From contig JBHLRQ010000017.1 of the NCBI GenBank assembly GCA_048882385.1, positions 1 to 42,366 on the forward strand: a stretch of 42,366 bases of DNA, in the 5' to 3' direction. Source of the DNA: Candidatus Thorarchaeota archaeon. GTDB taxonomy: Archaea > Asgardarchaeota > Thorarchaeia > Thorarchaeales > Thorarchaeaceae. How positions within the stretch are numbered: position 1 is the first letter of the stretch; every line of letters starts with the position of its first letter. Positions 18,403 through 37,099 of this stretch are shown piece by piece. The position numbers were made by a program, and so were the translations under genes. The notes below the pieces were generated by a model. That model was not told where the DNA came from and ran no database searches. It saw only the letters and a list, made by a program, of their open reading frames with translations.

Positions 18403-19050
18403 CTATGCGTAGTACAATCGAACCCTGAGATGCGCTCTTGTATCTGTAGGCATCTCTCGCGCTTTCTTGACCTCTGGATTCTCAAGGGCGTCCTCCATGG
18501 TGAGTCTAAGATCTTCCTTTGATACGCTCAGTTGGACTTTGTCACCTACTGAAGCTACAACGTTTCCGGGCACAAGAATGTCAACATCAGATTTTAGACC
18601 GACCGCCTCAAGTGACTCCTCAATGAAACCCCCACCTGCTATCAGACAGACTGCATCAGTATCAAAATCGACGTCAACTGCATTCCCGACTTTTTCACCG
18701 TCTTTATCGACAATGTCCAGCTTTGTCAGGTCAGACCATCGAATCTCATCTGGTTTTATAGCACCCTTGTCTAGAGTGGTCTTCAGACTATTCACATTGG
18801 TGTTCAATTGAACTCTGTCACCAATCACACTGATGAGTGTTGCATCAAGAACAGGATCCTTATCCGGTTTAATCTTTGCAGATTCGAGGAACTCCTCCCA
18901 TCTAGAACCAGCAAGAATGAATTGAGATAGTTTGAGTTTTCCATCAAAGATAAAAGTCAGATCATTGATCCTTCCTACTTTTTCTCCACTAGAATCAACC
19001 ACATCGCAATCCCTCAATTGCTTGCAGTTTATTGGTTTTAGAACATCCAC
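18403..19050 (-). CDS. Tandem PRC-barrel domain protein
   Basis: Two homologous halves: QLRDCDVVDSSGEKVGRINDL...VIGDRVQL and DLTKLDIVDKDGEKVGNAVDV...SVGDKVQL. Start moved to the GTG at 19050, which follows an SD-like AGGTGTGA. Confidence 0.85.
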   Translation of the reverse strand: MDVLKPINCKQLRDCDVVDSSGEKVGRINDLTFIFDGKLKLSQFILAGSRWEEFLESAKIKPDKDPVLDATLISVIGDRVQLNTNVNSLKTTLDKGAIKPDEIRWSDLTKLDIVDKDGEKVGNAVDVDFDTDAVCLIAGGGFIEESLEAVGLKSDVDILVPGNVVASVGDKVQLSVSKEDLRLTMEDALENPEVKKAREMPTDTRAHLRVRLYYA

Positions 19051-19290
19051 GAATGTCACACCTTTGTTGGGACTATTCAGAATCCAAATTAAACCCTTCG
19101 AATGAGTCCATTCTATGATAGGTCTTCTAGTCAATGGTTAAAGTCACCTCATGCCGGTTTTGTCTAACGTTTGGCGCTGACCAAACACCTTATATAGATT
19201 TGTGACAGTGGAACGATAGGGAAAAACGTAACGTTCCGGAAATACGGAATGAATAACTGGAGCGTTAAGGTATTCGCAAAGGTGTAAACA

Positions 19291-19732: not shown

Positions 19733-20692
19733 ATGAGTTGGCCAAGTAATTATCCAGACACGCCAGATGAACCCGTTGAAAGAAAACCTTCTAGTCCGCC
19801 ACCACAGCCAGGAGGTCTTTTGAAAGATTTCGCTGTTGGTTTCAAACTCGCAGCGAAGAACTTTCTTTCTTATGCCCTAGCCATGCTTGGAGTCATATTA
19901 GTGACATTTGTTCTTCTAGTAATAATTCTCCTCTTCATTGTACTTCCAATAATCCTCACATTTGGTATTCCGTTCCTGATCAGCCTACTGATGTTCATAG
20001 AAGAAACCTTCACAACAGCAACTCAGCTAAGTCTAGTTGGGCTTATTCTAGTCCTGTTCCTCCCAATTCTTGGACCATTCTTTGTTGCTCTAGGATCACT
20101 ATTTGGAATGTCGAGAGAGGTTGTTGAAAGTGATGGAACATATGCAGAATCAGCCTTCTCTTGGTATGGAAAGAAAGCATTGTCTCTAGTTGGAGGAGGA
20201 ACGATTCATTTTCTAGTGACTCTCGCTCCGTTTATTGTTGCTTTCATAGGGATAGCTTATCCAACATGGAATCCTCCCACGAATGAAAGTCTTCGACTCA
20301 TAATCCCAGCAGCTGTTCTCTGGGTCTTTCTGAGCAATGGAATGCTATCATTGACATTCCCAGGAATAATTGATGGATATTCAGCAGTTCGTGCAGCAGC
20401 AAGATCTGTAAGACTTACCGCTCAGTTTCCAGGACGAGTTCTTGGTGCATGGACCATAATGTTTCTGATAATAGGACTTCCCGTATTCTCTCTGATCAAC
20501 GAAATTGCATTCATCTTTCCACCCTTCATTCCCATTGGATTATTCGAGCCCTATGCGGGATTGATCACCCTTGTCCTAGTGTTCTATGTAATTCCAGCAT
20601 TTTCCATTGTGCTCACAAGGATCTACATGATACTGACCGCGCGGGTAGATGCAACGTATACAGTTGACAGCGAAGGAGGCGATACTCTATGA
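19733..20692 (+). CDS. Multi-pass integral membrane protein with Pro-rich N-terminus
   Basis: About 6-7 hydrophobic helices and a strong SD (GAGGTGA). ATGA overlap with the next gene. Confidence 0.8.
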   Translation: MSWPSNYPDTPDEPVERKPSSPPPQPGGLLKDFAVGFKLAAKNFLSYALAMLGVILVTFVLLVIILLFIVLPIILTFGIPFLISLLMFIEETFTTATQLSLVGLILVLFLPILGPFFVALGSLFGMSREVVESDGTYAESAFSWYGKKALSLVGGGTIHFLVTLAPFIVAFIGIAYPTWNPPTNESLRLIIPAAVLWVFLSNGMLSLTFPGIIDGYSAVRAAARSVRLTAQFPGRVLGAWTIMFLIIGLPVFSLINEIAFIFPPFIPIGLFEPYAGLITLVLVFYVIPAFSIVLTRIYMILTARVDATYTVDSEGGDTL

Positions 20693-21330
20693 ATCCTAAA
20701 GTATCCACAGAACCAATCAAGGAATTTGTGGTTGTCACAAATCCCAAAATCATCAAACTACTATTGGACGCAACACGAAAAGAGATTGTGTTCAACTATC
20801 TCGTAAACGAACCTATGACAGTAAAGCAGCTTGCTGATGCGATGAAGAAGAAACCAGGCACAGTTCTTCATCATGTTCAGAAGCTTAAGAACGCAAATAT
20901 CATCAAACTTGTCGAGACTCGAGAAACTACAAGAGGGATAGTTGAGCGATACTATCGTGCCGTAGCTAGAGAGTTTCGCCTAGGTATCAGCGAGAGAATG
21001 AGCTCATACGATGAAGCCCCCGTATCTAGGGACAGAGTCAAAGCTGCTCTCTTGGCAATGTCTACATTGGGAGTTCATATCCCTGAAGCCCAACTTGATC
21101 ATGCAGGTACATTACTCCGAAAACTGATGGATATTGAAGAACAAGTTGCACGAGCATACGACAATCCTGACAATCATGCGTATCAAGCATTGCCGCCCGC
21201 CACGCGAAACGACATTTCAACAAGGATGTCACAATATCTGTTGTCTCGGAACGCAACTTATCAGAAAACTCTCAACGAGTGGAATGAGATCTTGGGATTC
21301 CATCTCAAGAGACTCACAGTTGTGGAGTAA
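20689..21330 (+). CDS. ArsR-like winged-HTH transcriptional regulator with C-terminal extension
   Basis: LLDATRKEIV...EPMTVKQLADAMKKKPGTVLHHVQKLKNANII...GIVERYYRA. Confidence 0.85.
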   Translation: MNPKVSTEPIKEFVVVTNPKIIKLLLDATRKEIVFNYLVNEPMTVKQLADAMKKKPGTVLHHVQKLKNANIIKLVETRETTRGIVERYYRAVAREFRLGISERMSSYDEAPVSRDRVKAALLAMSTLGVHIPEAQLDHAGTLLRKLMDIEEQVARAYDNPDNHAYQALPPATRNDISTRMSQYLLSRNATYQKTLNEWNEILGFHLKRLTVVE

Positions 21331-21336
21331 TGAACC

Positions 21337-22581
21337 ATGTCAAAAAAGCATGCCGTATTAGTCATCAGTAGCATTCTCTTGCTACTGATGACATCTTTCT
21401 TTCCAGTCCAAGGGAATGGAATCATTCCAAGTCAATCATCATCTGAACGTGACTATTGGCCAACAAATGGTTGGCAAAACGCGACTCCCGAAGAAGTCGG
21501 GATGGATTCAACCAAGCTTGAAGATATGATGGACAGAATTGACGAAAATGGGATACTCATCGATTCTCTACTAATTGTGAGAAATGGCTATCTGGTCTTC
21601 GAGAAATATCCAAGATATTATGATGAAGATTCAAGGCACATCATCCATTCTTGCACGAAGAGTTACACTTCAGCCTTGGTTGGAATTGCCCTTGAAGAAG
21701 GCTACATTGATAGTGTAGATGACAAGTTAATTGATCTACTACCAAATCGGACAATGGAGAATCTTGATGCTAGAAAAGAGGCCATCACGCTTGAACACCT
21801 TCTGACTATGACTGCAGGGTTTGAGTGGGATGAATGGACTGAACCCTACAGTTCGTATTTGAATAGCCATTATCAAATGTGGACTGCCAGTAATAATGTG
21901 CAGTATATTCTTGATTTACCAATGGCATATGACCCAGGGGATGTGTGGACATATAGTTCAGGTGCATCTCACCTCTTGGGTACTATAGTAACTGAGGCTA
22001 CTGGAATCGACCTCTTCGACTACGCCATAGAGAAGCTGTTCACTCCACTGGGTATCCAAGCGTCTGATATATTCTGGCCCTCGGATAATCAAGGACAATA
22101 TTGGGGAAGCGGCGGAGCAGAAATGATTCCTCGAGATATGGCTAAATTTGGATATCTCTATCTTAACAATGGAACATGGGATGGTGAACAAATCATTCCA
22201 TTGGATTGGGTTGAGAAATCAGCTGACACTCAAGTCGAGTTTAATGATTTCAGTGGCTATTCCTATCAATGGTGGACTTACCCAACTGATATTGTCAATG
22301 TATATGCTGCACAGGGATATCAGGGACAGTTCATTTTTGTAATTCCAGAACTAGATATGGTTGTGGTATTCACTTCTAGTGTACCACCATATGAATCCTA
22401 TCCACCACCAACGATCCTCTTTGAATACATCATTCGAGCAGTGGGATCTGGACAAACACAGCTAGGTATGTTTGGAAGTACAATTGCATTTCTGTCACTC
22501 GCACTCACAGCACCAATATTACTCGCAGGTGTATTCTATCGAATGATTGTAAGAAAATGGAATAAGGAGTTGAGAAGATGA
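21337..22581 (+). CDS. Exported, C-terminally membrane-anchored serine hydrolase (beta-lactamase class C / NylB-like family)
   Basis: Signal peptide, SxxK (SCTK), LLTMTAG, YSS, PRDMAKFG, AQGYQGQ and a C-terminal TM helix with basic tail. Confidence 0.9.
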   Translation: MSKKHAVLVISSILLLLMTSFFPVQGNGIIPSQSSSERDYWPTNGWQNATPEEVGMDSTKLEDMMDRIDENGILIDSLLIVRNGYLVFEKYPRYYDEDSRHIIHSCTKSYTSALVGIALEEGYIDSVDDKLIDLLPNRTMENLDARKEAITLEHLLTMTAGFEWDEWTEPYSSYLNSHYQMWTASNNVQYILDLPMAYDPGDVWTYSSGASHLLGTIVTEATGIDLFDYAIEKLFTPLGIQASDIFWPSDNQGQYWGSGGAEMIPRDMAKFGYLYLNNGTWDGEQIIPLDWVEKSADTQVEFNDFSGYSYQWWTYPTDIVNVYAAQGYQGQFIFVIPELDMVVVFTSSVPPYESYPPPTILFEYIIRAVGSGQTQLGMFGSTIAFLSLALTAPILLAGVFYRMIVRKWNKELRR

Positions 22582-23544: not shown

Positions 23545-24408
23545 ATGATTCAGATACTTGAACTTACAGAAATTCAAGCGAACATTATAGCGATAGTGCT
23601 CCCACTCATCATGGTAAGTGTGTTCATCTTAATCATACCAAGCCTAAGAGATGGATCTAGTAGTACGTTTAGGAGATATCTCTCCTATTCGGTCAAACCT
23701 CCAAAAATTGGTTCAGACAAAGCGAAACTCTACTTCTATTATTCTGGAATTGTATTGTTCTTGGTCAGTTTCATGGTTAGTGAATTTTACGAGGTGATTC
23801 TTGACCTAATTCTCCCCGTCACTCAAGGCAATACTGGAGAGATGAGAGAAATCTCAACTATAGTCTTCCAAAGCCCATTCAATGCAGGGTGGATTGGATC
23901 ATTACCATGGTTAGGAAGAATCATGTACCATGAAACTTGGAACTGGGTCTACTTCACTGCAGCTTTCACAGACAATCCAGACTTTCTCGGAACATTGAAT
24001 GCATATCTGACGTTATTTTCGATTGGGGTAGGGATAGTTTTTCTAGCCCCCCTAGCTATTAAGACAATCAGACATTCTTTCCTCGCATCAATGAGCTTCT
24101 TCACAATCGGGATGGCTATATTTGTAAAAGCTTCTGTCAGCAGTCTAGCCTACGCGATTGCACTCGCTTTCTTGAATGCAGAATTAGAGTTTATCACTAT
24201 TGTTGCTACAGGCAGCATGATTCCAGATCTCTGGTTTACGATAGTAGTGCAATCTCTGATAGTCCTTGCTATGTTTGGGTTCTTCGCTGTTCTTGGTCGA
24301 AAATTGTGGAGAATATACTATCCAGACTCTCAATCAAGAACTTGGTTCACAGGTTACATAGCTCTGAACTTCTTGCTAGGAGTCATCATTACAATTCTGG
24401 TGGTGTAA
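23545..24408 (+). CDS. Multi-pass membrane protein (paralog B)
   Basis: Homologous to 22578..23513 over its whole length (MIQ.LE..., RRYLSY.VKPP.IG, TDNP.F, LGRKLW). SD-like AGGAG upstream. Confidence 0.8.
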   Translation: MIQILELTEIQANIIAIVLPLIMVSVFILIIPSLRDGSSSTFRRYLSYSVKPPKIGSDKAKLYFYYSGIVLFLVSFMVSEFYEVILDLILPVTQGNTGEMREISTIVFQSPFNAGWIGSLPWLGRIMYHETWNWVYFTAAFTDNPDFLGTLNAYLTLFSIGVGIVFLAPLAIKTIRHSFLASMSFFTIGMAIFVKASVSSLAYAIALAFLNAELEFITIVATGSMIPDLWFTIVVQSLIVLAMFGFFAVLGRKLWRIYYPDSQSRTWFTGYIALNFLLGVIITILVV

Positions 24409-24410
24409 TA

Positions 24411-25604
24411 ATGAAACATATTGCGACATCAATCATCATTGTTCTATCAATTCTATTGAGTGTATCAATAATTCCAACTCATGCATATTCGGTTGCTCAA
24501 GGTGATATTGTCAGAAACTATTGGCCAACAAATGAGTGGCAGAACACGACACCTGAAGATCAGGGATTGGACTCAAACATTTTGAACCAAATAGATGAAA
24601 TGATTGTTTTGGAAGATATCGAAGTCGATTCGGTCATTATTGTCAAGAATGGCTACATTGTATATGAGAAATATTATGGCCTTTGGTCACAATACATCGT
24701 GCATACTATTCAGTCATGTACTAAGAGCTTTATGTCAGCTCTTATCGGTATCGCTATCGACCTGGGGTATATTGACAATGTGAGTCAACCAATTCTCGAT
24801 TTCTTCCCTAACTATACTATTGACAATTGGGATCCAAGAAAGGAAAATATCACCTTATTTAACTGCCTTACTATGTCAACTGGATTAGAATTCCATGAGG
24901 TCGATATTCCTTATTCAGATCCAGAGAATGACCTGTTTGCTATGTATAGAAGTGGCAATATGTGGCAATATGTCCTAAATCGTCCAATGGAATATGACCC
25001 TGGAACACACTGGTCTTACAACTCCGGGGGGATTGAACTACTCGGGGGTGCTATTGAATATGCCACTGGTTATTCGGTAGCAGATTTTGCTGAGGAGTTC
25101 TTGTTTGAACCTATAGGTATTGATTATTTTCAATGGTGGAAAGAACCAGCAAGCAATCAATATGGTTGTGGAGGTGGATTACACCTTAGACCAAGAGACA
25201 TGGCTCGATTCGGTTATCTCTATCTGAATCAGGGAAATTGGAATGGCACTCAAGTCGTTTCATCAGAATGGGTCAATGTATCAACACAAATGTACTTCGA
25301 TACAGGTGGCTGGTATCTCTATGGCTATACTTGGTGGGGAGTTCCTGAACAACCTTTCTACGAAGCAACTGGACACTATGAACAGAAGATCTATGTCTTG
25401 CCTGATCACGACACCGTTTGTGTTTTCACCGGTGATATTGCAGATGAAGACTGGCATCCTACAGATTACTTCGTGATGGAATATGTTTTACAAGCCGCGG
25501 CAGGCGCAGACGCTAAAGACACAATCTTGTTGGGTCTATACATATCAATTCTAGTCATCTTTGTGGCTCCGATGCCAATTATGATGGTGAAACACCGACG
25601 TTAA
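24411..25604 (+). CDS. Second exported, membrane-anchored serine hydrolase (beta-lactamase class C / NylB-like family)
   Basis: Start moved to the ATG at 24411 (MKHIATSIIIVLSILL signal peptide). Contains SCTK, YNS, PRDMARFG and a C-terminal TM helix. Paralog of 21337..22581 (R.YWPTN.WQN.TPE..G.DS). Confidence 0.9.
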   Translation: MKHIATSIIIVLSILLSVSIIPTHAYSVAQGDIVRNYWPTNEWQNTTPEDQGLDSNILNQIDEMIVLEDIEVDSVIIVKNGYIVYEKYYGLWSQYIVHTIQSCTKSFMSALIGIAIDLGYIDNVSQPILDFFPNYTIDNWDPRKENITLFNCLTMSTGLEFHEVDIPYSDPENDLFAMYRSGNMWQYVLNRPMEYDPGTHWSYNSGGIELLGGAIEYATGYSVADFAEEFLFEPIGIDYFQWWKEPASNQYGCGGGLHLRPRDMARFGYLYLNQGNWNGTQVVSSEWVNVSTQMYFDTGGWYLYGYTWWGVPEQPFYEATGHYEQKIYVLPDHDTVCVFTGDIADEDWHPTDYFVMEYVLQAAAGADAKDTILLGLYISILVIFVAPMPIMMVKHRR

Positions 25605-26226: not shown

Positions 26227-26430
26227 TACTATTCAAGTGTCATTACTCACTTATGAATACAATTGGAAGAGATGGCTAAAGACATAGCATTTCACACCTA
26301 AACTTCCACACCAAACACCAGTGAGATGAAAAAACTGACTGATGATGACATGAATTATTGAAGATTCCACTCATTTTTCAAATAATGAATTGAAAGCAAA
26401 TGAATCGTTGATACTTTTGAAATTTGATGC

Positions 26431-26473
26431 AGAAAAAAAGAAAGATTTTCGGGCTCCCCTAGCAGGAAGCCCG
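26431..26473 (-). terminator. Hairpin plus poly-U terminator downstream of SSB copy 1
   Basis: Minus strand CGGGCTTCCT-GCT-AGGGGAGCCCG followed by AAAATCTTTCTTTTTTT. Confidence 0.7.
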
Positions 26474-26499
26474 GTATGATGAATAATTAACTTCTATTG

Positions 26500-27048
26500 C
26501 TAATACCTGCGACGCCTGTCACGGTTACCGTAGCCGCCACCACCGCCACGTCGATCTCTACGGTCTCTTCCACCGTATCCACCGCCGCCGTAGCCACCGC
26601 CACCGCCACCACCGTAGCCTCCACCACCATAACTGCGACCACCGCCACCGCCGTATCGTCGACGACGCTCGTCTTCATGCTCTTCAGCACTCATATCAAC
26701 TTCTTCGTTGACTTCTTCGATAGCTTCCTCAGCCTCCGCTAGTTCTCCGTACTTACCAATGTTAAGTCGTAGATTACCACGGAATAATCCGGTGTAGCCA
26801 TTTTTCAAAAGGTAGGTGGTACCAGGTTTCATCTCATCGATGCTGTTGTCCCAAAGGGGTACTTGAACACAACCAGTTGAGTCCCCGACAGTTGCGTCGG
26901 CAACACGGTGAGTCGCCCCATCATTGCGGGACGTGACCTCACGCTCTTCTCCAATAGCAACCACTTTGAAAGCAATTGTAACATTCTTCATTCTCGGCTT
27001 TAGCTCAGCCACTGTAGCCTCAATAGGCTCACGTTCTTGATAACTCAT
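26500..27048 (-). CDS. ssb: Single OB-fold single-stranded nucleic-acid-binding protein (crenarchaeal SSB / hSSB1-like) with Gly/Arg/Tyr-rich tail, copy 1
   Basis: VAELKPRMKNV...VADATVGDSTG.V.VPLWD...GTTYLLKNGYTGLFRGNLRLNIGKYG OB-fold signature, then an acidic linker and a YGG/RGG tail. Confidence 0.85.
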   Translation of the reverse strand: MSYQEREPIEATVAELKPRMKNVTIAFKVVAIGEEREVTSRNDGATHRVADATVGDSTGCVQVPLWDNSIDEMKPGTTYLLKNGYTGLFRGNLRLNIGKYGELAEAEEAIEEVNEEVDMSAEEHEDERRRRYGGGGGRSYGGGGYGGGGGGGYGGGGYGGRDRRDRRGGGGGYGNRDRRRRY

Positions 27049-27221
27049 CGTATATTCTCTCGCTTCTGCGATAGCAGGACAATAAAAACTGGGTGTTCTT
27101 CAATGGGTATGTGTGCGAATTCGTGTAGACCCCGCCAGACCACGTCTCGAAGGCCGCATGCTTGTATCTGCCTGCACATTTTTGCTGAGTATGTTCCCTT
27201 AAGAACTTGTGTACAGTGGCT
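27049..27221 (-). promoter_or_regulatory. Conserved promoter plus long 5' leader of SSB copy 1
   Basis: CTTAAGAACTTGTGTACAGTGGCT is identical upstream of both SSB copies (minus strand TTCTTAAG is TATA-like). Several leader blocks are also conserved. Confidence 0.6.
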
Positions 27222-27240
27222 ATTGACCCTTAAACAATGT

Positions 27241-27282
27241 AAAAAGAAAAAGAGAGTTTAACGGACCAAAAAAAGAGTCCGT
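27241..27282 (-). terminator. Hairpin plus poly-U terminator downstream of SSB copy 2
   Basis: Minus strand ACGGAC-TCTTTTTTTG-GTCCGT followed by a TTTTTCTTTTT tract. Confidence 0.65.
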
Positions 27283-27308
27283 ATAGATTCTGGTTGGGCT
27301 AAAGTCGA

Positions 27309-27854
27309 CTAGTATCTGCGACGATTGTCACGGTTGCCATAGCCACCGCCACCACGACGATCTCTGCTTCCGCCACCGTAGCCGCCGCTGTAACCACCGC
27401 TGCGGCCATATGAACGACCGCCACCACCACCGCCATAAGAACGACCACCGCCACCATAGCTACCTCTACGACGATCATCTTCGTGTTCCTCAGCGCTCAT
27501 GTCAACCTCTTGATTGACTTCTTCAATCTCATCATCAGCCTCGGATACTTCTCCGTATTTTCCGATGTTGAGTCGAAGATTACCTCGGAATAGTCCGGTG
27601 TAACCGTTCTTCAGAGTGTAGGTTGTTCCAGCTTCAATGTCATCGATGGAAGAGTCCCACAATGGAACTTGAACAGTACCTGTCGAATCACCGACTGTTG
27701 CATCTGCAACACGATGAGTGGCTCCATCACTTCGTGATGAAACTTCACGTTCTTCGCCTGTAGCAACCACCTTGAAGGTAATTGTTACATTTTTCATTCG
27801 TGGCTTCAATTCAGCCACTGTAGCCTCAATAGGCTCACTTTCTTGATAACTCAT
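27309..27854 (-). CDS. ssb: Single OB-fold SSB-like protein with Gly/Arg/Tyr-rich tail, copy 2
   Basis: Start moved to the ATG at 27854 (MSYQESEPIEATVAELKP), matching copy 1. Near-identical OB fold, divergent low-complexity tail. Confidence 0.85.
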   Translation of the reverse strand: MSYQESEPIEATVAELKPRMKNVTITFKVVATGEEREVSSRSDGATHRVADATVGDSTGTVQVPLWDSSIDDIEAGTTYTLKNGYTGLFRGNLRLNIGKYGEVSEADDEIEEVNQEVDMSAEEHEDDRRRGSYGGGGRSYGGGGGGRSYGRSGGYSGGYGGGSRDRRGGGGYGNRDNRRRY

Positions 27855-28030
27855 GGTATATTCTCTCGCTTGTGCGATTAACAGGTCAAGCAAAAACAGG
27901 GTGTTCTTCAGTGGGCATGTGTGTAATCGTATTGACCCCTCACCGGGCCACATCTCGAAATCGCCTTGGAATTGATATTCCTGTGTGTGTTCGCTGCGAG
28001 AGTTACCTTAAGAACTTGTGTACAGTGGCT
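27855..28030 (-). promoter_or_regulatory. Conserved promoter plus long 5' leader of SSB copy 2
   Basis: Aligns to 27049-27221 (GGGTGTTCTTCA, TATATTCTCTCGCT, TCTCGAA and CTTAAGAACTTGTGTACAGTGGCT blocks). Confidence 0.6.
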
Positions 28031-29113: not shown

Positions 29114-32100
29114 CTAGCGATATTTTTTCTTGCAATGACTGAAGCTATACCAGTGCCAACATTTCTTATGCCACCAGTGAGGACGCCAACCTTTTGTTGC
29201 ATCATAGATTTGACCATCGTCTACAGGCATAACAAAAGCACATCTCTTCTTATGATGCGGCACATATACGAATACAGAGCCGATTGTTTCACCACCTCTA
29301 CCATCTGCCGCGAGGAAAGTTATCTCATAGACCCTACCATTGCCACATCCAGACCTCTCTGCTCTCAACCAAGCGATGTTTGACCCAACACCATATGCAT
29401 CGGGGCACCATCCCACAAACTCATCACTTGTGATGTTCAATATTGTAATGAGCACGTCATCGCCATCTGGATCTGATACTCCCTCTATCCATATTGGCAC
29501 AAATTTCCCATTTGGAGGCCACAAGAACTCAATGCTTGGAGTTGCAAGTGTAACATTTGGTGGCCTGTTATATGGTTCAGCTCCAGCTCCAAATAGAGAG
29601 AGATGTTTTACGTAAGCCCAAACATATCCAGCATATCCTTGACCGTAAAGCACCACATCTGTGGTGTTAACACCACACTCCAACACCCAATCCAAGTCTT
29701 CAGTAAGCTTCGTCCACATTCCTGTTGATTCATCGAAGCAATAGAGCCCGATGGTAGATTCATCTAGATCATCGATATCATTTGCCAGTCCATCGCCTGT
29801 TCTATCGAGACAAGCAAGCTTGTAGTAAAGTTTGATCAACGTGACGTTTATCATGTCTGGTGTTCCATCTTCCAAAACCAAGTCTGTATCAAGATAGGTT
29901 CCAAGTGAAAATTCGTATTGCATGAGCCCAGTTGTACTATTCAGACTGTGAGGAGTTGACTGCTCATCGAATCTAGTAATGGTCATGATTGGTGTGACAG
30001 ATTGATCTAGTGAAACATAGATGATAGAATCTGTGCGCTTTAGAGTATCGATGTCATTTACGAGGAAATAGATACTATATTCGCCATTTGCATACTCAAA
30101 CGCAGGAATAGTCTTGTACTCTAGGAACACTGAATCAGGAGATACCGTTACATTCTTTCTATTGAAGATATTAATCACTCTAAAGACATCTTTTGCCTTG
30201 GCTTCTGAAAGCATGATTATCGTTTGTGTTTCGTTCCAGACTCCATATCTGACTACATAGTCAAGTTCAGGAGTAGCTAGTCTTTCTACAGTATCTCCGC
30301 AGTCGACAAGAAGGTCAGCTATCAGAGAACCAACAGTACCTTGTGAGTCGTATGGATTTCCAATCAGAACCATCCGGCTAAAGTTTCTATAGTTAGCAAA
30401 GAACTCCTCAACCGTGACGTTGGACACAACCATGTGGTCAGAGAGCAAACCTGCAAACTGCAGAGATCCGGGATTCCCATCATGCACAACGACAACTTCA
30501 GCCTCAGCTAATGCTGCACCAACGCTTTCAGGATTACTATAGTTGCTCAGAGGACTCGTTCCGAAATCCAACTCAATGCCATCAGGACTCCCGTCACTAT
30601 CTGTGTCATTTGATAGAGGGTTCATCATCATGAGAACCTCTAATCCATCAGTTACATTATCGTCGTCAGAGTCCTCATCCATCGGATTTGTTCCAATACG
30701 GACCTCAGCAAAATCCAGCAACAAATCCCCATCTGAGTCATTGCTCCAAGGATCTGTACCTAGATCAAACTCGGTTCCATCAAAGATGAAATCTCCATCT
30801 GAGTCTGGTGACAATGGGTCGGAACCCGCATCATACTCCTCTTTGTCACTTGCACCATCTCCATCCGTATCATTATTTCGCGGGTCCGTTCCAAGTTGCA
30901 GCTCCAATGGATCCAATAGTTGGTCATTGTCTGCATCTGGGCTCAATGGATCACTTCCAAAGTTGAGCTCAGTCCCATCATCTAATGTATCTAGATCTGA
31001 GTCATAGTGAATGATGTTCAGCCCAAGGCGGAGCTCGTCTGGATCCAAAACACCATCCTCATCAGAATCAACGCTCTGGGGATTGGAACCTAGCAGCCAC
31101 TCGTCATAATCTGAGATGGTATCAAAATCACTATCAGTTAGATAGATGGAGCTATTCACGTGGACATCTGTCCCATGCGCTGTTGTGATTGTGATGGTCC
31201 AACCATTGGACTCGGTAGTATCTGTCAATGAGTCTTGGTCCCAATCTGTGACGTCATCCTCGAGGTCAGGTCTCATGATGATCAGGGTTTCATTGAACTT
31301 GATGACATGAGTTGAATTAGCTACATAGATGATGCCCTCATCATCGACATCTATTGCTAATGGATTACCTACCTCAAGAGATGCCTGCCAGATGAGTTCG
31401 TCATTAAACTTCAAAATACGATTGTTTCCAGTGTCAGCGACATAGATGTTCCCATCCGCATCCACTGCAACATCTGCAGGTCCATTGAGTGGTGTACCAT
31501 CAGCTGAATATATTGGAGGTAAACCATCTGCAATCACGCCGCCAGAATCAAATATGTACACTTTGTTAGCAGGGTTATCAGCAACATAGATGAGACCATA
31601 TGAACCAACATCAATACCTTGTGCCCCCTCCAACTCAGCCCAACCGAAACTATCCCGAAGATATCGAAAAGTAGAATCATATTTTCGAATGCTAGACATT
31701 CCCATATAGTCAAATGAGAGATAGACAGAGCCTTGATTATCAGCAGCCATTCCTTTGATTGGACTACTATATGATAATCCATAATCGACTATGTTTTGCG
31801 AGTAGATAGGTGTCCCACTGGGGGTTGCTTTAGTGATACGCTGCCACGGTGCACCAGAATTGTATTCTGCTATAAACTCAATTGTGATATGATTTCCGGA
31901 AGAAGGAATGAAATAACTCCCACTACCACTCCATACGATTTCTCCATTGCTACTGATCTCTAGTACCTGCCCGAAACGATTACCTAGATTATTATCAGGA
32001 TTCACAATAGGACAAGGATTCAAGATCCTAGATAGCAACTTCCAAGAGCTACCGATTTTCTCAAAGACAAATACAGCTCCCATATTTGAATCGAATCCAG

Positions 32101-35100
32101 GAGCACCCACTGCAACAGTATTCCCAGAGTTGTCTATGGCAACTGAATATCCGAACTCGGAATTATCCGGTAGGCCAGGAACCTCCAAAGGAGTTTCCCA
32201 CCAAGTACCACCACCATACTCGTAGATATACGCATATCCAGGTGCTGAGTCTACTCGTTCATTGAATCTTACTGCATGTTCATGGTAAGGTGCACCTACA
32301 ATGTATGTATCCGAACCAGGTATATAATCGATTGAAAATCCAAACTCGTCATAGGCCATTTGACCTGGACCGATTGGAGGGCGCTCTATTGTCCAACCTT
32401 CATAATAATCTGGCCAATAATATGGATAACTATAGGAATCAAGGAGGGAACCGTCTGGATTGTTGTAGTGCCATTTGTAGTTCCACCTTAGATCATATAC
32501 GCGTACGATGCCCTTATGAGCTGCTGAGTTCTGATGAGCAGTATCATCGTAGTTGTATGCGCTGACAGACAGACGTATTGTGTTCATATAATCTATTTTT
32601 GGTCCGGTATCAACTCTCATAGAAAGTATCCACCGTCCTTTTAGTTCAGGATCGGGAAGTATTCCATAATTGGGATTCTGAGGGAAACGATTTGCACCAC
32701 CAATCCAAGCATGTGGTTCGAATTTGTTGTCGTAATCTTGCCACAACCACTCAATGATGGAAGAACAGGTGTCACCCTCTGTATCCCAGTATCGAAGGGT
32801 AGCAAAAATCCTGTACTCATTGTAACTGCGACTCGGTAGATCATGATGTCGCTCATCAATCGCAACACAACATCCCATTATACCATATTTTGATGGGCCG
32901 CCAAGATTACCAACTCGTGTCCATCCCGCCATTCCTCGTTGGAAGACGAATACAGCACCTGTTTGCGTGGGGGTATGATCGAAGTCCTGAAGACCCCACC
33001 AGAAGGGATATTGGCTTGATGGGTAGTATGACATCGTGGGTGCCCCAACAACAATAATATTTCCACTTGGGGAAATCGCTACTGAATAACCAAACATAGG
33101 CCAACCTGCTTCACCATTTGGATCTACATTTATGCCACAATCGATGTATGTTTGGTAATCCCAGTGTCGCCCATTTTTCACAAAGATCTGTGCAATATTG
33201 CGCCAAGGATCACCTATCACCATTGTCGCACCAGCAGCATCTATGGCAACTGAAGGAATACCGTTCCGAATTCTATTTTCCGGCGTATTCATGTTTGATG
33301 TAGAATATGGAGTAAACGAGTATGAATCCTGATTTGAAGTCCACTGCGTAATTCCAAGATTACCATCTGGTAAAGTAGTTTCAGCACAGGGTACAACAGA
33401 TTCTGTACTTGGATTATAGATTCCAACCGGTGTTCCGTCTGAAGCATATTTTATAATTTGATTTGAATCTGCGACATATATATTCCCAGTCTCATCAACA
33501 GTAATGTCAAATGGATCAGAAGATGAGCTAAGACCAACAGCCCACTCTTCTTCGAACTCAATGTAACTAGCAGGACCCTCTACATCTATGACCCCATCAC
33601 CATTTGTATCTTGGGAACAAGGATTCAAGCCATCTCGTCGCTCAATGAAATCACCAACACCATCGGAGTCTGAATCATTCATTCTTGGGCTAGAGTGTGC
33701 AATTATTGTGAAAGGCAAGAGTGGGTCGTTCAGGTAATTGAACTGAATTGTATCACCAGAAATTTCCAAGTAGTCGCGGACGCCATCGAAATCTGAATCA
33801 GGATTTGTGAAATTTGTGTGATAGACAAGCTCGTATTTGTCGTTCAAACCGTCCATGTCAGAATCGGCTAGAAGAGGATTAGAACCGATTTCCAGTTCGA
33901 ATTTGTCACTGAGTGAGTCTCCATCAGAGTCAAATTTTACAAAATCTGTTACGGTTTCCTCGGAGTTTAGAAGTCCATCACAATCGAGATCGAGAGGAGT
34001 AATGAGTCGCCAAGCAGCAAATGATTCAATAGTGTCAGGAAGAACATCGATGTAAATAGTAAAGCTGCCTACATCATCATACGACTCTTGGTGACTATGA
34101 TGAGTAATTGGGACGCAGAATAGCCAGTATGTCCACTCGTAGTAGAGTTGCGTAAATGTCTGCACTCTGATGTTCATTGGAAAATTAGGCATAGCAGTAT
34201 TTGGTATGGCCCATACACCAGAATCATATTCTACACTACTGTAGTATAACATTGCTCCAGTTGAAGCATCAGACCAGTCTGCAGTCTGTCTGCTACTTGG
34301 AATTGGCAGATAGACGTTCTCCCAATTGTAAATGATGCCTGCTACGAAGATTGGATCGTAGAGCAGGCCTACATCTGAAGATGAACCAAGAGGAGTTTCG
34401 ATGAGATAGTATGGATAGACATCACTCTTTTCAACATCACCTTGATGCTTGCCATACCAGAGCCCACGGAGAATTCCTCTGAAAGTTAATCTATCACCCA
34501 CAGTCACTCCGTTGTTCGTCCAATCATCGATAATAAGTTCTTGATCTTCATCATATTCAAGGAGTGGATAGACCTGCGAATCAACTGAAGAGATAGCATC
34601 AATGATTTCATCAAATAGCATACCAATTAGGTCGGATAGAGTGGTAGTTCCACACCACCCAAGTATAATATCGATAATAGAAAAGATAGCAACAAAAGCT
34701 GCACCATACGGATTTTGAGAGATAGCTATCAACATCAAGTCTTTGATGTATCCCATGAGTGTCTTGAATAAAGCTTGAGTGAGCTGAAGGGGATTCAATC
34801 CGCCCTGTGTAATTGCAATGACTCCATAGATGGTCACCCCCACGTCTATAGCTATCGCAGCAATATCGAAAATACCACCTATACTCTTCCAAGTCTTCAT
34901 CAAGCTGGTTTTTGCTTTTCCAATTGATTTGAACGCAAGTTTCCATTCCTTAAAGACACTCGTGGCTGCTTGCTTTCCCTGAATGGAGACCCTCCAACCT
35001 GCTTTTATCATGCTATGAAAACTTTCAACGGATCGCTGTGCTATCCTATAAGCTTCAATTGATCTGACCAGACCCTTACGAATCAAAGTAAATACTGAGA

Positions 35101-37099
35101 TACTAAAATCAGTAATTGCATGAGCCCAATTGACCAAGTCCTCTAAGGGGATACGATAATCTAAATTCACTGAAGATAAATCAGTTGCAACATTTTCTCC
35201 TGATAGCCAGTAGAGTGAAAGGCTCATGACAGTAGCTAGAGTTTCATCATCCAGACCCCAGCTCTCGATTTCCTCCATAATTTCAGGGGTATCCAAGGAT
35301 TGATACAGGACTTCACCATCAATTATTATTCGGTATTGCCATATGGTCTGCTTGACTTTTTGTGATGTGATATTAACAGCACTTGTTATCCCAGTGAATG
35401 AATCACCAACCTGATTAAAATCAGATAGATCTAGAATTCTGACATAACTCTCCAAGCATGTGATAAAGGGATAAGGTCTATCCAATACAAGTGAATCAAG
35501 AGCAGTTGGTATCATGTAATTAGCAATACTAGAAAGTGCTTCATCCTTCTGATTGAAAGATTGGGTAATGTTATGAATATCCCGACCAAGACGAGTAAGT
35601 TCGGATTTTATGTCAAAGACTCCGATGCTCGCATTCCTGAGAAATATCATATCAATAAGTGGTTCTGCGAGTGTAGTGTTCTGAGGTTCCTCACAATGGA
35701 AAATACCTGCTTCAGCACCATAGTCTTCTTCTAACAACAAGCCTGTAAGCATGAATGAATCATCGTATCTAGCTAGTTCTCTTGTTTCCGGAATAAAACC
35801 AGCATTTAGCAAATCAAAGACGCAAACGACTCCACCATCGTTTGTAGTCAATTGCCAGTCAACATTCGGTTCTGTAAGAGCTAGTGGTGAATTTGAAAAA
35901 TCAGATACAAGGGTGAAAGTTCCTAGACTAGAATCATCTTCAATAACTGTGAACATTTCATTAGGACCAATGTCCTCACCATTTGCCGCTACAGTTCCTT
36001 CATTATCCACTGACAAATAGTTCCCGTTGAAAAGCTTGATTGCAACCTTGTCATTTCCAAGGTCAATCCATTGAAATGATTGAATTCCGCCCGTACCAGC
36101 TTCATTGACGTATACTCGACCATCTGCAGCAACAGAAAGATTTCGAGAGAGGTTTACATCAGCAAGCGCAGAGGCATTTTGATCCGATTGACCAAAGACT
36201 TTCCAGATGAGTTTCGCAGTGATGCTAAGTTCGGACGGAGTAAATTCAGGATAAACTAATCTTCCACTATATGCAACAATCTTGCCATACTGTTCTACCG
36301 GAAAGAGTGGAAGTTCAATTCCTTCCGGAGTGATACTGATACCATATTTGATGACATCAATTTGTTCAGGAAGATTGGATACACTAAGTTGAAGCATGGG
36401 AACAATGAACACATCAGAATCTGGTTGCCTATGAACGTCCATCATATTACCATGAATATCATAAGGCCAATCCCAGGTTTGGGATATGAGGCTGAGATGA
36501 GCTGGATCATCTGGCACTAACTGGAATGTCATATACATTGGATTCCCATTTGTTTCAATATCAAATGACATTTCTTCAAAACAGTCAGTACTGGTGAATG
36601 GAGAAAGGTCAACATTATCTTCAACACCATCACCATCATTGTCAAAGTCCCAACCGTTGACAATGTTGTCATTGTCTATGTCTTGAGAGATGGAACCAAA
36701 CAGCTCATGATTGTCTGGGATGCCATCAAAATTCGTATCGGGCTCCAGAGGGTCGAGATCATTGTAGATTTCGAAGTCATCACTCAATTGATCAAAATCA
36801 GTATCATTGTTCATCCAGTCTGTCCCGATGACTCTCTCGACAGGATCGTAGATGGAATCCTCATCATAATCCGTCCTATTGATTAAAGGTGTAACTTCTT
36901 GCAATTGTTCGACTAGATGCCTTAGTGAGAATGCTTCTCTGGGAGGATTTGTGTTTGCAGGTAAACTATTTTCTACAACATTTTGACCTTCTTGTGTCAT
37001 CATTTCCGTCCAATATTGAACATGATAGATTTCTGCAACCAAGAACATCCCAATGAATAACAACGCAATAGCTGCAGCTGTAGGTTTCCGCCTTTGCAT
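29114..37099 (-). CDS. Giant secreted mosaic protein: TSP3-like DxDxDG Ca-binding repeats, fascin-like beta-trefoil, hydrophobic helical block, NHL and FG-GAP beta-propellers, C-terminal Ig-like domain
   Basis: N-terminal signal/anchor (MQRRKPTAAAIALLFIGMFLV). Three clusters of D[ST]D.DG..D..E...G.[DN]P repeats. FG.SVAI...G..[IV].VGAP repeats. P.D[IV].VD..GNIYVAD NHL repeats. LWPPNGK...GVSDPDGD...LRAERSG.GNGRVYEITF C-terminal domain. Confidence 0.88.
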   Translation of the reverse strand: MQRRKPTAAAIALLFIGMFLVAEIYHVQYWTEMMTQEGQNVVENSLPANTNPPREAFSLRHLVEQLQEVTPLINRTDYDEDSIYDPVERVIGTDWMNNDTDFDQLSDDFEIYNDLDPLEPDTNFDGIPDNHELFGSISQDIDNDNIVNGWDFDNDGDGVEDNVDLSPFTSTDCFEEMSFDIETNGNPMYMTFQLVPDDPAHLSLISQTWDWPYDIHGNMMDVHRQPDSDVFIVPMLQLSVSNLPEQIDVIKYGISITPEGIELPLFPVEQYGKIVAYSGRLVYPEFTPSELSITAKLIWKVFGQSDQNASALADVNLSRNLSVAADGRVYVNEAGTGGIQSFQWIDLGNDKVAIKLFNGNYLSVDNEGTVAANGEDIGPNEMFTVIEDDSSLGTFTLVSDFSNSPLALTEPNVDWQLTTNDGGVVCVFDLLNAGFIPETRELARYDDSFMLTGLLLEEDYGAEAGIFHCEEPQNTTLAEPLIDMIFLRNASIGVFDIKSELTRLGRDIHNITQSFNQKDEALSSIANYMIPTALDSLVLDRPYPFITCLESYVRILDLSDFNQVGDSFTGITSAVNITSQKVKQTIWQYRIIIDGEVLYQSLDTPEIMEEIESWGLDDETLATVMSLSLYWLSGENVATDLSSVNLDYRIPLEDLVNWAHAITDFSISVFTLIRKGLVRSIEAYRIAQRSVESFHSMIKAGWRVSIQGKQAATSVFKEWKLAFKSIGKAKTSLMKTWKSIGGIFDIAAIAIDVGVTIYGVIAITQGGLNPLQLTQALFKTLMGYIKDLMLIAISQNPYGAAFVAIFSIIDIILGWCGTTTLSDLIGMLFDEIIDAISSVDSQVYPLLEYDEDQELIIDDWTNNGVTVGDRLTFRGILRGLWYGKHQGDVEKSDVYPYYLIETPLGSSSDVGLLYDPIFVAGIIYNWENVYLPIPSSRQTADWSDASTGAMLYYSSVEYDSGVWAIPNTAMPNFPMNIRVQTFTQLYYEWTYWLFCVPITHHSHQESYDDVGSFTIYIDVLPDTIESFAAWRLITPLDLDCDGLLNSEETVTDFVKFDSDGDSLSDKFELEIGSNPLLADSDMDGLNDKYELVYHTNFTNPDSDFDGVRDYLEISGDTIQFNYLNDPLLPFTIIAHSSPRMNDSDSDGVGDFIERRDGLNPCSQDTNGDGVIDVEGPASYIEFEEEWAVGLSSSSDPFDITVDETGNIYVADSNQIIKYASDGTPVGIYNPSTESVVPCAETTLPDGNLGITQWTSNQDSYSFTPYSTSNMNTPENRIRNGIPSVAIDAAGATMVIGDPWRNIAQIFVKNGRHWDYQTYIDCGINVDPNGEAGWPMFGYSVAISPSGNIIVVGAPTMSYYPSSQYPFWWGLQDFDHTPTQTGAVFVFQRGMAGWTRVGNLGGPSKYGIMGCCVAIDERHHDLPSRSYNEYRIFATLRYWDTEGDTCSSIIEWLWQDYDNKFEPHAWIGGANRFPQNPNYGILPDPELKGRWILSMRVDTGPKIDYMNTIRLSVSAYNYDDTAHQNSAAHKGIVRVYDLRWNYKWHYNNPDGSLLDSYSYPYYWPDYYEGWTIERPPIGPGQMAYDEFGFSIDYIPGSDTYIVGAPYHEHAVRFNERVDSAPGYAYIYEYGGGTWWETPLEVPGLPDNSEFGYSVAIDNSGNTVAVGAPGFDSNMGAVFVFEKIGSSWKLLSRILNPCPIVNPDNNLGNRFGQVLEISSNGEIVWSGSGSYFIPSSGNHITIEFIAEYNSGAPWQRITKATPSGTPIYSQNIVDYGLSYSSPIKGMAADNQGSVYLSFDYMGMSSIRKYDSTFRYLRDSFGWAELEGAQGIDVGSYGLIYVADNPANKVYIFDSGGVIADGLPPIYSADGTPLNGPADVAVDADGNIYVADTGNNRILKFNDELIWQASLEVGNPLAIDVDDEGIIYVANSTHVIKFNETLIIMRPDLEDDVTDWDQDSLTDTTESNGWTITITTAHGTDVHVNSSIYLTDSDFDTISDYDEWLLGSNPQSVDSDEDGVLDPDELRLGLNIIHYDSDLDTLDDGTELNFGSDPLSPDADNDQLLDPLELQLGTDPRNNDTDGDGASDKEEYDAGSDPLSPDSDGDFIFDGTEFDLGTDPWSNDSDGDLLLDFAEVRIGTNPMDEDSDDDNVTDGLEVLMMMNPLSNDTDSDGSPDGIELDFGTSPLSNYSNPESVGAALAEAEVVVVHDGNPGSLQFAGLLSDHMVVSNVTVEEFFANYRNFSRMVLIGNPYDSQGTVGSLIADLLVDCGDTVERLATPELDYVVRYGVWNETQTIIMLSEAKAKDVFRVINIFNRKNVTVSPDSVFLEYKTIPAFEYANGEYSIYFLVNDIDTLKRTDSIIYVSLDQSVTPIMTITRFDEQSTPHSLNSTTGLMQYEFSLGTYLDTDLVLEDGTPDMINVTLIKLYYKLACLDRTGDGLANDIDDLDESTIGLYCFDESTGMWTKLTEDLDWVLECGVNTTDVVLYGQGYAGYVWAYVKHLSLFGAGAEPYNRPPNVTLATPSIEFLWPPNGKFVPIWIEGVSDPDGDDVLITILNITSDEFVGWCPDAYGVGSNIAWLRAERSGCGNGRVYEITFLAADGRGGETIGSVFVYVPHHKKRCAFVMPVDDGQIYDATKGWRPHWWHKKCWHWYSFSHCKKKYR
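30550..31250 (-). repeat. Cluster of tandem ~22-aa Ca-binding (thrombospondin type 3-like) repeats
   Basis: DSDEDGVLDPDELRLG, DSDLDTLDDGTELNFGSDP, DTDGDGASDKEEYDAGSDP, DSDGDFIFDGTEFDLGTDP, etc. Smaller clusters at about 33590-33990 and 36600-36870. Confidence 0.85.

Follow-up and report, generated by a model that had tools for sequence, protein, structure and literature searches.

Tandem SSB-1/NABP-type OB-fold paralogues with basic Gly/Tyr/Arg tails and a conserved upstream leader in a Thorarchaeota genome

A tandem pair of SSB-type genes

The DNA analysed here, which we refer to as the window, comprises positions 1 to 42,366 of contig JBHLRQ010000017.1 (forward strand; 42,366 nucleotides, nt) from a Candidatus Thorarchaeota archaeon (GenBank assembly GCA_048882385.1; 3.7 Mb and 95.3% complete), and our subject is a pair of adjacent minus-strand genes in it, A and B, which encode small proteins of the single-stranded DNA-binding (SSB) type. 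The two are tandem paralogues that appear to be maintained and represent the form taken in Asgard archaea by the single-OB SSB-1/NABP family, in which an OB fold followed by an acidic segment and a Gly/Tyr/Arg tail is the rule, and each is preceded by a conserved leader of ~130 nt which we propose is transcribed. The features of the locus are listed below (open reading frame, ORF; AlphaFold2, AF2; per-residue model confidence, pLDDT; amino acids, aa).

26500..27048, minus strand: gene A including the stop codon, an SSB-1/NABP-type protein of 182 aa (ORF; PF21473, E = 6.7e-15; AF2 model).
26746..27048, minus strand: gene A OB fold, residues 1–101 (alignment; pLDDT >90 for approximately residues 11–110; Foldseek 1o7i E = 7e-10, 4oww_B E = 4e-9).
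26668..26745, minus strand: gene A acidic post-OB segment, residues 102–127, net charge −14, with the motif EVN..VDMSAEEHED (pLDDT ~89–94 to about residue 120).
26503..26667, minus strand: gene A predicted disordered Gly/Tyr/Arg tail, residues 128–182, net charge +12, ending RDRRRRY (pLDDT <50 for residues 132–182; composition kept).
27049..27178, minus strand: leader A, ~127–130 nt from GCAGG (27171–27175) to the ATG, with proposed helices P1–P7 (covariance model R1, 103.5 bits).
27197..27221, minus strand: putative promoter box A, 25 nt, with the TATA-like TTCTTAAGG at 27197–27205, 21 nt before GCAGG (identical box in gene B).
26430..26474, minus strand: terminator-like hairpin A, a 10-bp stem at 26450–26473 and then T-runs at 26430–26445 (folding, −20 kcal/mol, z = −2.46).
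27309..27854, minus strand: gene B including the stop codon, the paralogue of 181 aa (ORF; PF21473, E = 3.1e-14; 84% identical to A).
27552..27854, minus strand: gene B OB fold, residues 1–101 (PF21473; alignment to A).
27474..27551, minus strand: gene B acidic post-OB segment, net charge −14 (composition count).
27312..27473, minus strand: gene B Gly/Tyr/Arg/Ser tail, residues 128–181, net charge +11, ending RDNRRRY (Ser-rich flavour common to orthologues).
27855..27987, minus strand: leader B, ~130 nt from ACAGG (27980–27984) to the ATG (covariance model R1, 128.3 bits).
28006..28030, minus strand: putative promoter box B, TATA-like element at 28006–28014 (identical to box A).
27241..27282, minus strand, between the genes: terminator-like hairpin B, 7 bp at 27261–27282 with a loop that contains T7, followed by two T5 runs at 27241–27256 (folding, z = −1.74).

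An earlier, sequence-only reading of this DNA had described near-identical OB folds, acidic linkers, tails of ~55 aa and basic RRRY ends, and our comparison agrees: 117 of 139 aligned residues are equal (84%) over the OB fold and linker, each OB part of 101 aa is followed by a linker of 26 aa with a net charge of −14, the tails measure 55 aa (A) and 54 aa (B), and both end in RRRY, in contrast to the acidic Saccharolobus SSB end RGGRRQENEEGEEE. We take the start of gene B to be MSYQE at 27854, which is conserved among homologous loci. A longer ORF of 214 aa (start 27953) was rejected, as its in-frame ATG lies inside the leader and is not conserved at other loci, and it should be noted that automatic annotation may over-extend gene B by way of this codon (27855–27953). 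Short plus-strand ORFs across the tail DNA were also dismissed, as shadows of the GGN repeat.

Family membership and structure

Both proteins match the Pfam family PF21473 (Ssb-like OB), at 55.5 bits (A) and 53.4 bits (B) against a cut-off of 24, and score 133.8 and 129.1 bits with the NCBIfam model PRK06461 (NF005049), below its equivalog cut-off of 188. The closest solved structures by sequence are those of the Sulfolobus SSB (2mna/1o7i, E = 2.5e-14), an Arabidopsis protein (1wjj, 3e-13) and human hSSB1 (1.7e-11), with corresponding family-profile E-values of 4.7e-26, 1e-21 and 7e-19, which upholds the hSSB1-like OB fold of the earlier reading. The AF2 model, based on a 76-sequence alignment, has pLDDT >90 over 103 residues, is confident to about residue 120 and falls below 50 for residues 132–182, and Foldseek ranks 1o7i first (1o7i_A, E = 7e-10, TM-score 0.79 by target), followed by 4oww_B (hSSB1 in SOSS1; TM-score 0.87) and 1wjj. 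Replication protein A (RPA) is recognised by several OB folds, a zinc ribbon and a Rep_fac-A C-terminal domain; each protein here has a single OB fold. Residues W66, Y85 and F89 align gap-free with W56, W75 and F79 of the Sulfolobus SSB, and W66, together with S120 of the post-OB motif, is invariant in 76/76 sequences; the substitutions W56A and F79A are reported by Xiao et al. 2023 (PMC10684826) to reduce binding by SisSSB.

Relative closeness to the Sulfolobus, human and plant proteins was judged by E-values and by the extent of alignment. Profile alignments cover query residues 5–126 with the plant protein and 8–131 with the human protein, and thus run through the post-OB motif E-V-N-x3-[DN]-[ML]-S-x2-E-[HY]-E (26668–26745 and 27474–27551), which aligns with the Arabidopsis and human NABP proteins and not with the Sulfolobus SSB, for which the aligned region goes no further than residue 108. 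In this one respect the name hSSB1-like used in the sequence-only reading is apt. The model predicts that the acidic post-OB segment packs on the OB fold.

Comparison with better-known systems places the two proteins among several partial likenesses. The Saccharolobus/Sulfolobus SSB (SSB-1 type; 1o7i, 2mna, 7wcg) shares the single OB fold, the positions of the aromatic triad, a flexible Arg/Gly-containing C-terminal tail and the lack of a cold-shock protein (Csp) alongside, and has a published role as an RNA chaperone and in cold adaptation (PMC10684826), but its tail ends acidic, where the proteins here have the acidic block ahead of a basic end, it lacks Tyr-Gly repeats and its post-OB region does not align. 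Human hSSB1/NABP2 (SOSS-B1; 4owt, 5d8f) and Arabidopsis F20O9.120 (1wjj) belong to the same Pfam family, align through the post-OB motif and have a long disordered C-terminal region; hSSB1 differs in acting within the SOSS/Integrator complex with INTS3 (according to PDB entry titles), a kind of partner that did not turn up here, where no search was aimed at it, and in tail composition, and its sequence scores lie slightly below those of the Sulfolobus SSB. Bacterial SSB (E. coli type) also combines an OB fold with a Gly-rich disordered linker, which drives condensation, and a short conserved tip ending in an aromatic residue, but it belongs to a different OB subfamily, forms a homotetramer, has an acidic tip (the charge is inverted here) and is an essential replication factor. 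The cold-inducible glycine-rich RNA-binding proteins CIRBP/RBM3, plant GRP7 and cyanobacterial Rbp join a small nucleic-acid-binding domain to an RGG/YGG-type tail and function as RNA chaperones in the cold; they are built on an RRM and not an OB fold, are not homologous to the proteins here, and the likeness is one of architecture alone.

Tail composition and conservation

Tail A contains 28 Gly, 15 Arg and 7 Tyr residues and tail B 24 Gly, 13 Arg, 7 Tyr and 6 Ser residues. The RGG/YGG label given to them earlier suits the Tyr motifs, with five (A) and six (B) copies of [G/S]Y[G/S], and is loose for RGG, which occurs literally once per tail; an RGG box calls for two or three RGG in close succession, and some homologues do have three. 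YGG/RDRR tail is therefore a better description than RGG box. Repeated [G/S]Y[G/S] in a Gly-rich region with pLDDT <50 is a FUS-like property, although FUS has far more of these motifs than these tails. In place of the acidic tip of crenarchaeal SSB, given for SisSSB as ...ENEEGEEE (PMC10684826), the tails have the basic-aromatic ends listed above. No match to the arginine methyltransferase family PF05185 was found in the genome, and none to PF22528, for which the search was uninformative as the control matched no genome.

Among the 120 best homologues, the linker motif DMS.EEH is kept in all 120, Gly and Arg make up at least 50% of the last 40 residues in 119, and the end is Tyr, Phe or Trp after at least two Arg or Lys residues in 106 (and RRRRY in 84), while tail length ranges from 27 to 80 residues with a median of 53. 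A low-complexity run arising by chance is rejected because of this retention of linker motif, Gly and Arg content and end, and the sequence-only reading, which would have been undermined by a tail not conserved in orthologues, survives on this point with composition and ends conserved and length not. It should be noted that natural tail-less paralogues of 126–131 aa occur in the same class, which limits what that reading made of the tail. The basic-aromatic tip recurs across the family. Of 99 representatives (115–260 aa, from a 50%-clustered library), 42 end in Tyr, Phe or Trp, and in 28 of the 42 this aromatic end is preceded by two or more basic residues; 22 of the 99 are Gly- and Arg-rich, and acidic Sulfolobus-type tails were seen by eye in a few, with a composition filter flagging 1/99.

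The named homologues come from Thorarchaeota and related Asgard bins. SSB proteins were found in 84/87 genomes of the class, mostly in several copies (at least six genomes besides this one have tandem pairs), and in 143/201 sampled genomes of the phylum, and the copies inspected from six other Asgard families have R/G/Y-rich tails ending RRY or RRF. In a tree based on the OB fold and linker (54 rows), tail-less and long-tailed proteins were separated with 100/100 support, and gene B grouped with second copies from three other genomes in a clade supported at 97/84, all with Ser-rich tails; tails in this B-type clade have 4–9 Ser residues, compared with 0–3 in other copies from genus g1 and 3 and 7 in two copies from other genera of the family (coded handles are used here for families, e.g. 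f12, genera, g1, g2, g7, g10 and g15, and genomes, e.g. G027). The duplication and tail flavour therefore predate these species. Tail-DNA length differences in contigs from other sediment samples are of 3 or 6 bases, and so in frame, and fall within GGN repeats (26593–26602 and 27420–27432).

Elsewhere in the same genome there is a copy of 159 aa with a shorter R/G/Y tail on contig C3, and, at a contig end on C12 (G000:C12:49765-50082), another which stops just past the acidic segment (...SRPRY). A further SSB-like protein on C30 (L005:1351-1944) matches PF21473, is 30% identical and has a different, basic and Gly-poor tail, and a 285-aa frame on C77 (L006:931-1785) has a GNAT acetyltransferase domain fused to an Ssb-like OB fold. 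The tail-less class, which includes this C12 copy and proteins from other genomes (L070–L089, e.g. L071:1001-1520 and L072:898-1420), has the OB fold and acidic segment followed by only ~5–11 residues, with ends of R-x-R-Y or RRY in 6/21 and an aromatic residue in 9/21; these paralogues often lie in tandem pairs and have a recognisable version of the SSB leader.

Promoters, terminators and a conserved leader

Duplication extends to ~175 nt ahead of each ATG and takes in the identical 25-nt box, and a hairpin with T-runs follows each gene; the claim that each has its own promoter and terminator is thus borne out as far as sequence evidence goes. Hairpin B is also present between tandem genes elsewhere in other genomes, where the letters of its stem differ. 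A scan for sigma-70 promoters and intrinsic terminators was discarded as unsuited to archaea, its sole terminator match being on the wrong strand.

The pattern across the class (33 loci) consists of a box ending in a TATA-like TTCTTAAGG or ATAATAAGG, a non-conserved spacer of ~21 nt and a conserved stretch of ~127–133 nt from GCAGG to the ATG, and the leader is conserved in 33/33 aligned loci. In a second Asgard family, f12, a TATA element of the type TTT[TA]A[AT]A lies 130–135 nt before the ATG in 21/25 scanned SSB genes (one of the remainder has a match 70 nt out and three have no match to the pattern); by eye the f12 box reads CTTTTTATA and is followed by CAG... and, ~25–30 nt before the ATG, by CCUGA, which could form a clamp. 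This arrangement in f12 pins down where the transcript probably starts. We regard the leader before both genes, which the sequence-only reading missed, as apparently new, with a related leader in f12: Rfam 15 has no family for it, the only match being sR41 within the coding sequence, which reaches 19.9 bits where the gathering score is 54, and we know of no leader for the Saccharolobus/Sulfolobus SSB. A small upstream ORF in the leader was rejected, as the ATGs of leaders A and B are not conserved over the 33 loci and conservation is without codon periodicity.

A covariance model of the leader, R1, matched only genes A and B in their own genome, and gave 126 matches in 64/87 genomes across the class. 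Twenty-three matches away from any SSB match were inspected (20 regions), and all precede SSB-family ORFs, of which 21 are complete and tail-less (126–131 aa) and the other two are truncated where their contigs stop, and for 64 of 65 distinct leader copies an SSB-type ORF begins within 24 nt, the 65th being cut by the contig end after the SSB N-terminus MSYEEREPIEATVA. The paralogue on C3 had no R1 match at E-values up to 1. The f12 leaders escape R1, and its matches in g2, g7, g10 and G027 are only marginal; likeness in these cases was judged by eye. These matches support the view that the paralogues, tailed or tail-less, probably each have their own promoter and conserved leader of ~130 nt.

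The proposed fold, obtained from averaged pairing probabilities, is a rod of helices P1–P6 closed by GCAGG/CCUGC, with a hairpin P7 before an invariant GAGAG. In P1 the 5' end of the leader can pair with CCUG(C) ~25 nt before the AUG, and G-C, G-U and A-U pairs are all seen. Three alignments were compared with controls in which the pairing partners were slid out of register.

Alignment A2, not fitted to the model, 33 sequences: 85% of cells paired (35–49% slid); 10 pairs changed on both sides (7–11 slid).
Alignment A6, not fitted, 65 sequences including the leaders of tail-less paralogues: 79% paired (38–49% slid); covariation score 0.161 (0.07–0.10 slid).
Alignment A4, fitted to the model, 65 sequences: 77% paired (37–47% slid); covariation score 0.182 (0.06–0.10 slid).

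P1 and P7 are the firm helices, with 87–89% of cells paired. In alignment A6, 67 cells changed on both sides compared with 36.8 in shuffles, and in A4 this was so for 21/33 pairs compared with 15.1; in neither case did any of 500 shuffles reach the observed value, although these controls are inflated by the kinship of the sequences. Several other points weigh against a structured leader. P3, P5 and P6 are weak (49–62% of cells paired), the apparent covariation of P5 may partly be a one-column register shift between two paralogue classes, and in the 33-sequence alignment covariation does not rise above the slid controls. As single sequences the leaders are of ordinary stability (z = −0.46 and −0.26), leader B has a minimum-energy fold that departs from the consensus, and the invariant GAGAG is mismatched to a standard anti-Shine-Dalgarno sequence (read against the standard 16S end and not that of the organism itself). 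Taken together, pairing in the proposed fold is good and covariation moderate.

A metatranscriptome contig (209 nt, 6 differences) spans 26918–27123 and joins 131 nt of coding sequence to 75 nt of leader A, which is weak support for transcription of the leader as DNA may be present in the library. Most other matches in this RNA run (X20) were short GGN-repeat pieces from other organisms, leaving one informative record, and such contigs show neither starts nor levels.

Replication and cold-shock functions in the genome

The sequence-only reading had proposed RNA chaperones or cold-shock analogues rather than replication SSBs, and the second half of this is plausible because the genome encodes a separate RPA (599 aa, multi-OB, with Rep_fac-A_C) on contig C9, where it adjoins PolD DP2, and because the neighbours of the SSB pair (a serine hydrolase, a DUF998 membrane protein and a molybdopterin oxidoreductase) are unrelated to replication. 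Xiao et al. report that the Saccharolobus SSB is dispensable for replication (PMC10684826).

The cold-shock half fits as well, with points on both sides. No cold-shock-domain (CSD) gene was matched in this 95.3%-complete genome, by a search whose control matched 10/14 genomes, and the sole TRAM match lies inside a 443-aa frame, with none stand-alone, so that the organism appears to lack both Csp and a stand-alone TRAM protein. The Saccharolobus SSB rises in level at low temperature and melts dsRNA and RNA/DNA hybrids, and the OB core of crenarchaeal SSB-1 rescues an E. coli csp mutant and so can replace Csp (PMC10684826). This rescue holds for SSB-1 of Csp-less Crenarchaeota and not for the tail-less SSBs of a Csp-bearing Korarchaeote and Heimdallarchaeote (PMC10684826).

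CSD genes were found in only 4/87 genomes of the class, namely the three of genus g15 (3/3) and G027. Genus g15 shows no leader match even with filters off, and its SSB tail is Lys-rich with the end AESTD. Csp is thus present in none of the 64 genomes with a leader match and in four of the 23 without, a pattern which fits substitution of Csp by leader-bearing SSBs but which amounts to one evolutionary event and is anecdotal. As a separate observation, the CSD genes of g15 are clustered, with 2–3 copies within ~2 kb (G078:C2:14505-16189; G079:C9:55587-56773; G077:C143:22107-24225).

Four points count against a cold-shock or RNA-chaperone role for the tailed proteins. The substitution pattern is based on a single genus; G027 has a Csp as well as RGG-tailed SSBs; the full-length tailed SSB did not complement the csp mutant, and the tail was not needed (PMC10684826); and the tail-less Korarchaeota and Heimdallarchaeota SSBs prefer ssDNA (PMC10684826). 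The earlier claim is thus supported in part, by the absence of CSD and stand-alone TRAM genes and by the precedent of SSB-1 replacing Csp, while the part given to the tail is less certain, as the OB core alone complemented. In the literature that we searched, neither the tails nor the leaders of Asgard SSBs were the subject of any paper.

Further afield in the window, giant ORFs flank the region, at 1–14079 (plus strand; 4692 aa, open at the window start) and 29114–37099 (minus strand; 2661 aa, with Asp-rich calcium-binding-like repeats). Between the first of these and the SSB pair lie a PRC-barrel protein, an ArsR-type regulator and two beta-lactamase-family serine hydrolases (18403–19134, minus strand; 20689–21330, 21337–22581 and 24306–25604, plus strand), with no evident link to SSB.

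Proposed explanation and alternatives

On balance we lean towards the pair being general RNA/ssDNA chaperones which act beside RPA and are dosage-controlled through the leader. The OB groove would bind single-stranded RNA or DNA without sequence preference, and the +12 tail would make binding multivalent and raise its unspecific affinity; since the charge blocks are opposite, the −14 segment may compete with nucleic acid for the tail, intra- or intermolecularly. From these steps we infer that both proteins may be abundant and chaperone single-stranded nucleic acid in general, and RNA above all, with replication served by the separate RPA, a role like that published for crenarchaeal SSB-1 in Csp-less archaea.

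The leader would be a cis-regulatory RNA through which SSB output is adjusted once transcription has begun, either by feedback of SSB on its own leader, in the unfolded or folded state, or by refolding with temperature; each of these mechanisms is known for bacterial cspA. Autoregulation is also known for the phage T4 gene 32 leader. Neither the cspA 5' untranslated regions (UTRs) nor the gene 32 leader has any sequence or structure likeness to the SSB leader, and the mechanism here is one that we infer. The cspA-family 5' UTRs (thermosensing, cold box) are alike in being long conserved leaders common to the paralogues of a single-strand-binding chaperone, and Xiao et al. give such bacterial thermoswitches as a model while leaving the cold up-regulation of SSB open (PMC10684826).

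The two proteins could instead be genome-maintenance SSBs like human hSSB1/NABP2, coating ssDNA at damage or stalled forks, with the tail and tip recruiting repair partners and RPA undertaking bulk replication. Alignment with hSSB1 and the Arabidopsis protein to query residues 126–131, compared with 108 for the Sulfolobus SSB, is in keeping with this, as is the conserved C-terminal tip, since bacterial SSB recruits its partners through such a tip. The ssDNA preference of the tail-less Heimdallarchaeota and Korarchaeota SSBs noted above points the same way. However, no repair or replication genes lie near the pair, several copies with an elaborate common leader better fit an abundant, dosage-controlled protein, no recruited partner was identified here, and deletion of the Saccharolobus orthologue is reported to give no DNA-damage sensitivity (PMC10684826), and we consider a repair role to be rather improbable.

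A role in which the tail mainly drives condensates, its Tyr/Arg stickers and the −14/+12 blocks phase-separating with RNA into an archaeal ribonucleoprotein (RNP)-granule-like compartment, we hold to be decidedly unlikely. The 7 Tyr and 13–15 Arg in 54–55 Gly-rich residues are in line with the sticker rule for FUS-family proteins, the charge blocks are opposite, the tail is predicted to be disordered and its composition is maintained over lengths of 27 to 80 residues. In addition, E. coli SSB is reported to condense via its Gly-rich linker (PMC12143593). Against this, the basis is composition alone, literal RGG boxes are few, and the tail-less paralogues share the leader and OB fold and therefore the family works without a tail. 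Neither the repair nor the condensate role is exclusive of that of a general chaperone.

We find very doubtful the suggestion that the conserved 130 nt ahead of each gene act at the DNA level, as operator sites for a transcription factor, and not as a functional RNA. In its favour, the 25-nt box upstream of the TATA-like element has two palindromes (TGTACA and CTTAAG), the leaders are not unusually stable and covariation is only moderate. Against it, conservation starts sharply ~21–25 nt downstream of the TATA element at the expected transcript start with the spacer before it not conserved, complementary segments ~100 nt apart change together (P1), no TATA lies near the ATG, and the RNA-library contig holds leader and coding sequence together.

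The chaperone reading could be carried further, to an Asgard OB-fold cold-shock/RNA-chaperone system parallel to bacterial cspA and foreshadowing the eukaryotic RNP-granule proteins, in which tail-less, short-tailed and long-tailed SSBs are combined, the long-tailed ones condense with RNA, and one structured leader senses temperature or free SSB. Such a system would also be the prokaryotic root of the hSSB lineage, because the post-OB motif is common to the plant and human NABP proteins. We offer this wider picture as speculation that is unlikely to hold in full.

For the family, a leader conserved ahead of SSB paralogues across an Asgard class would provide a concrete object for the question of how SSB is up-regulated in the cold. 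Tails of ~55, ~35 and ~5 aa on near-identical OB folds may serve as a natural deletion series for what a Tyr/Arg/Gly tail contributes to a nucleic-acid chaperone, and this series is found in the archaeal lineage closest to the eukaryotes. The charge-inverted tip, RRRY in place of the acidic bacterial tip, suggests that these proteins may follow a different logic in choosing partners or in self-interaction.

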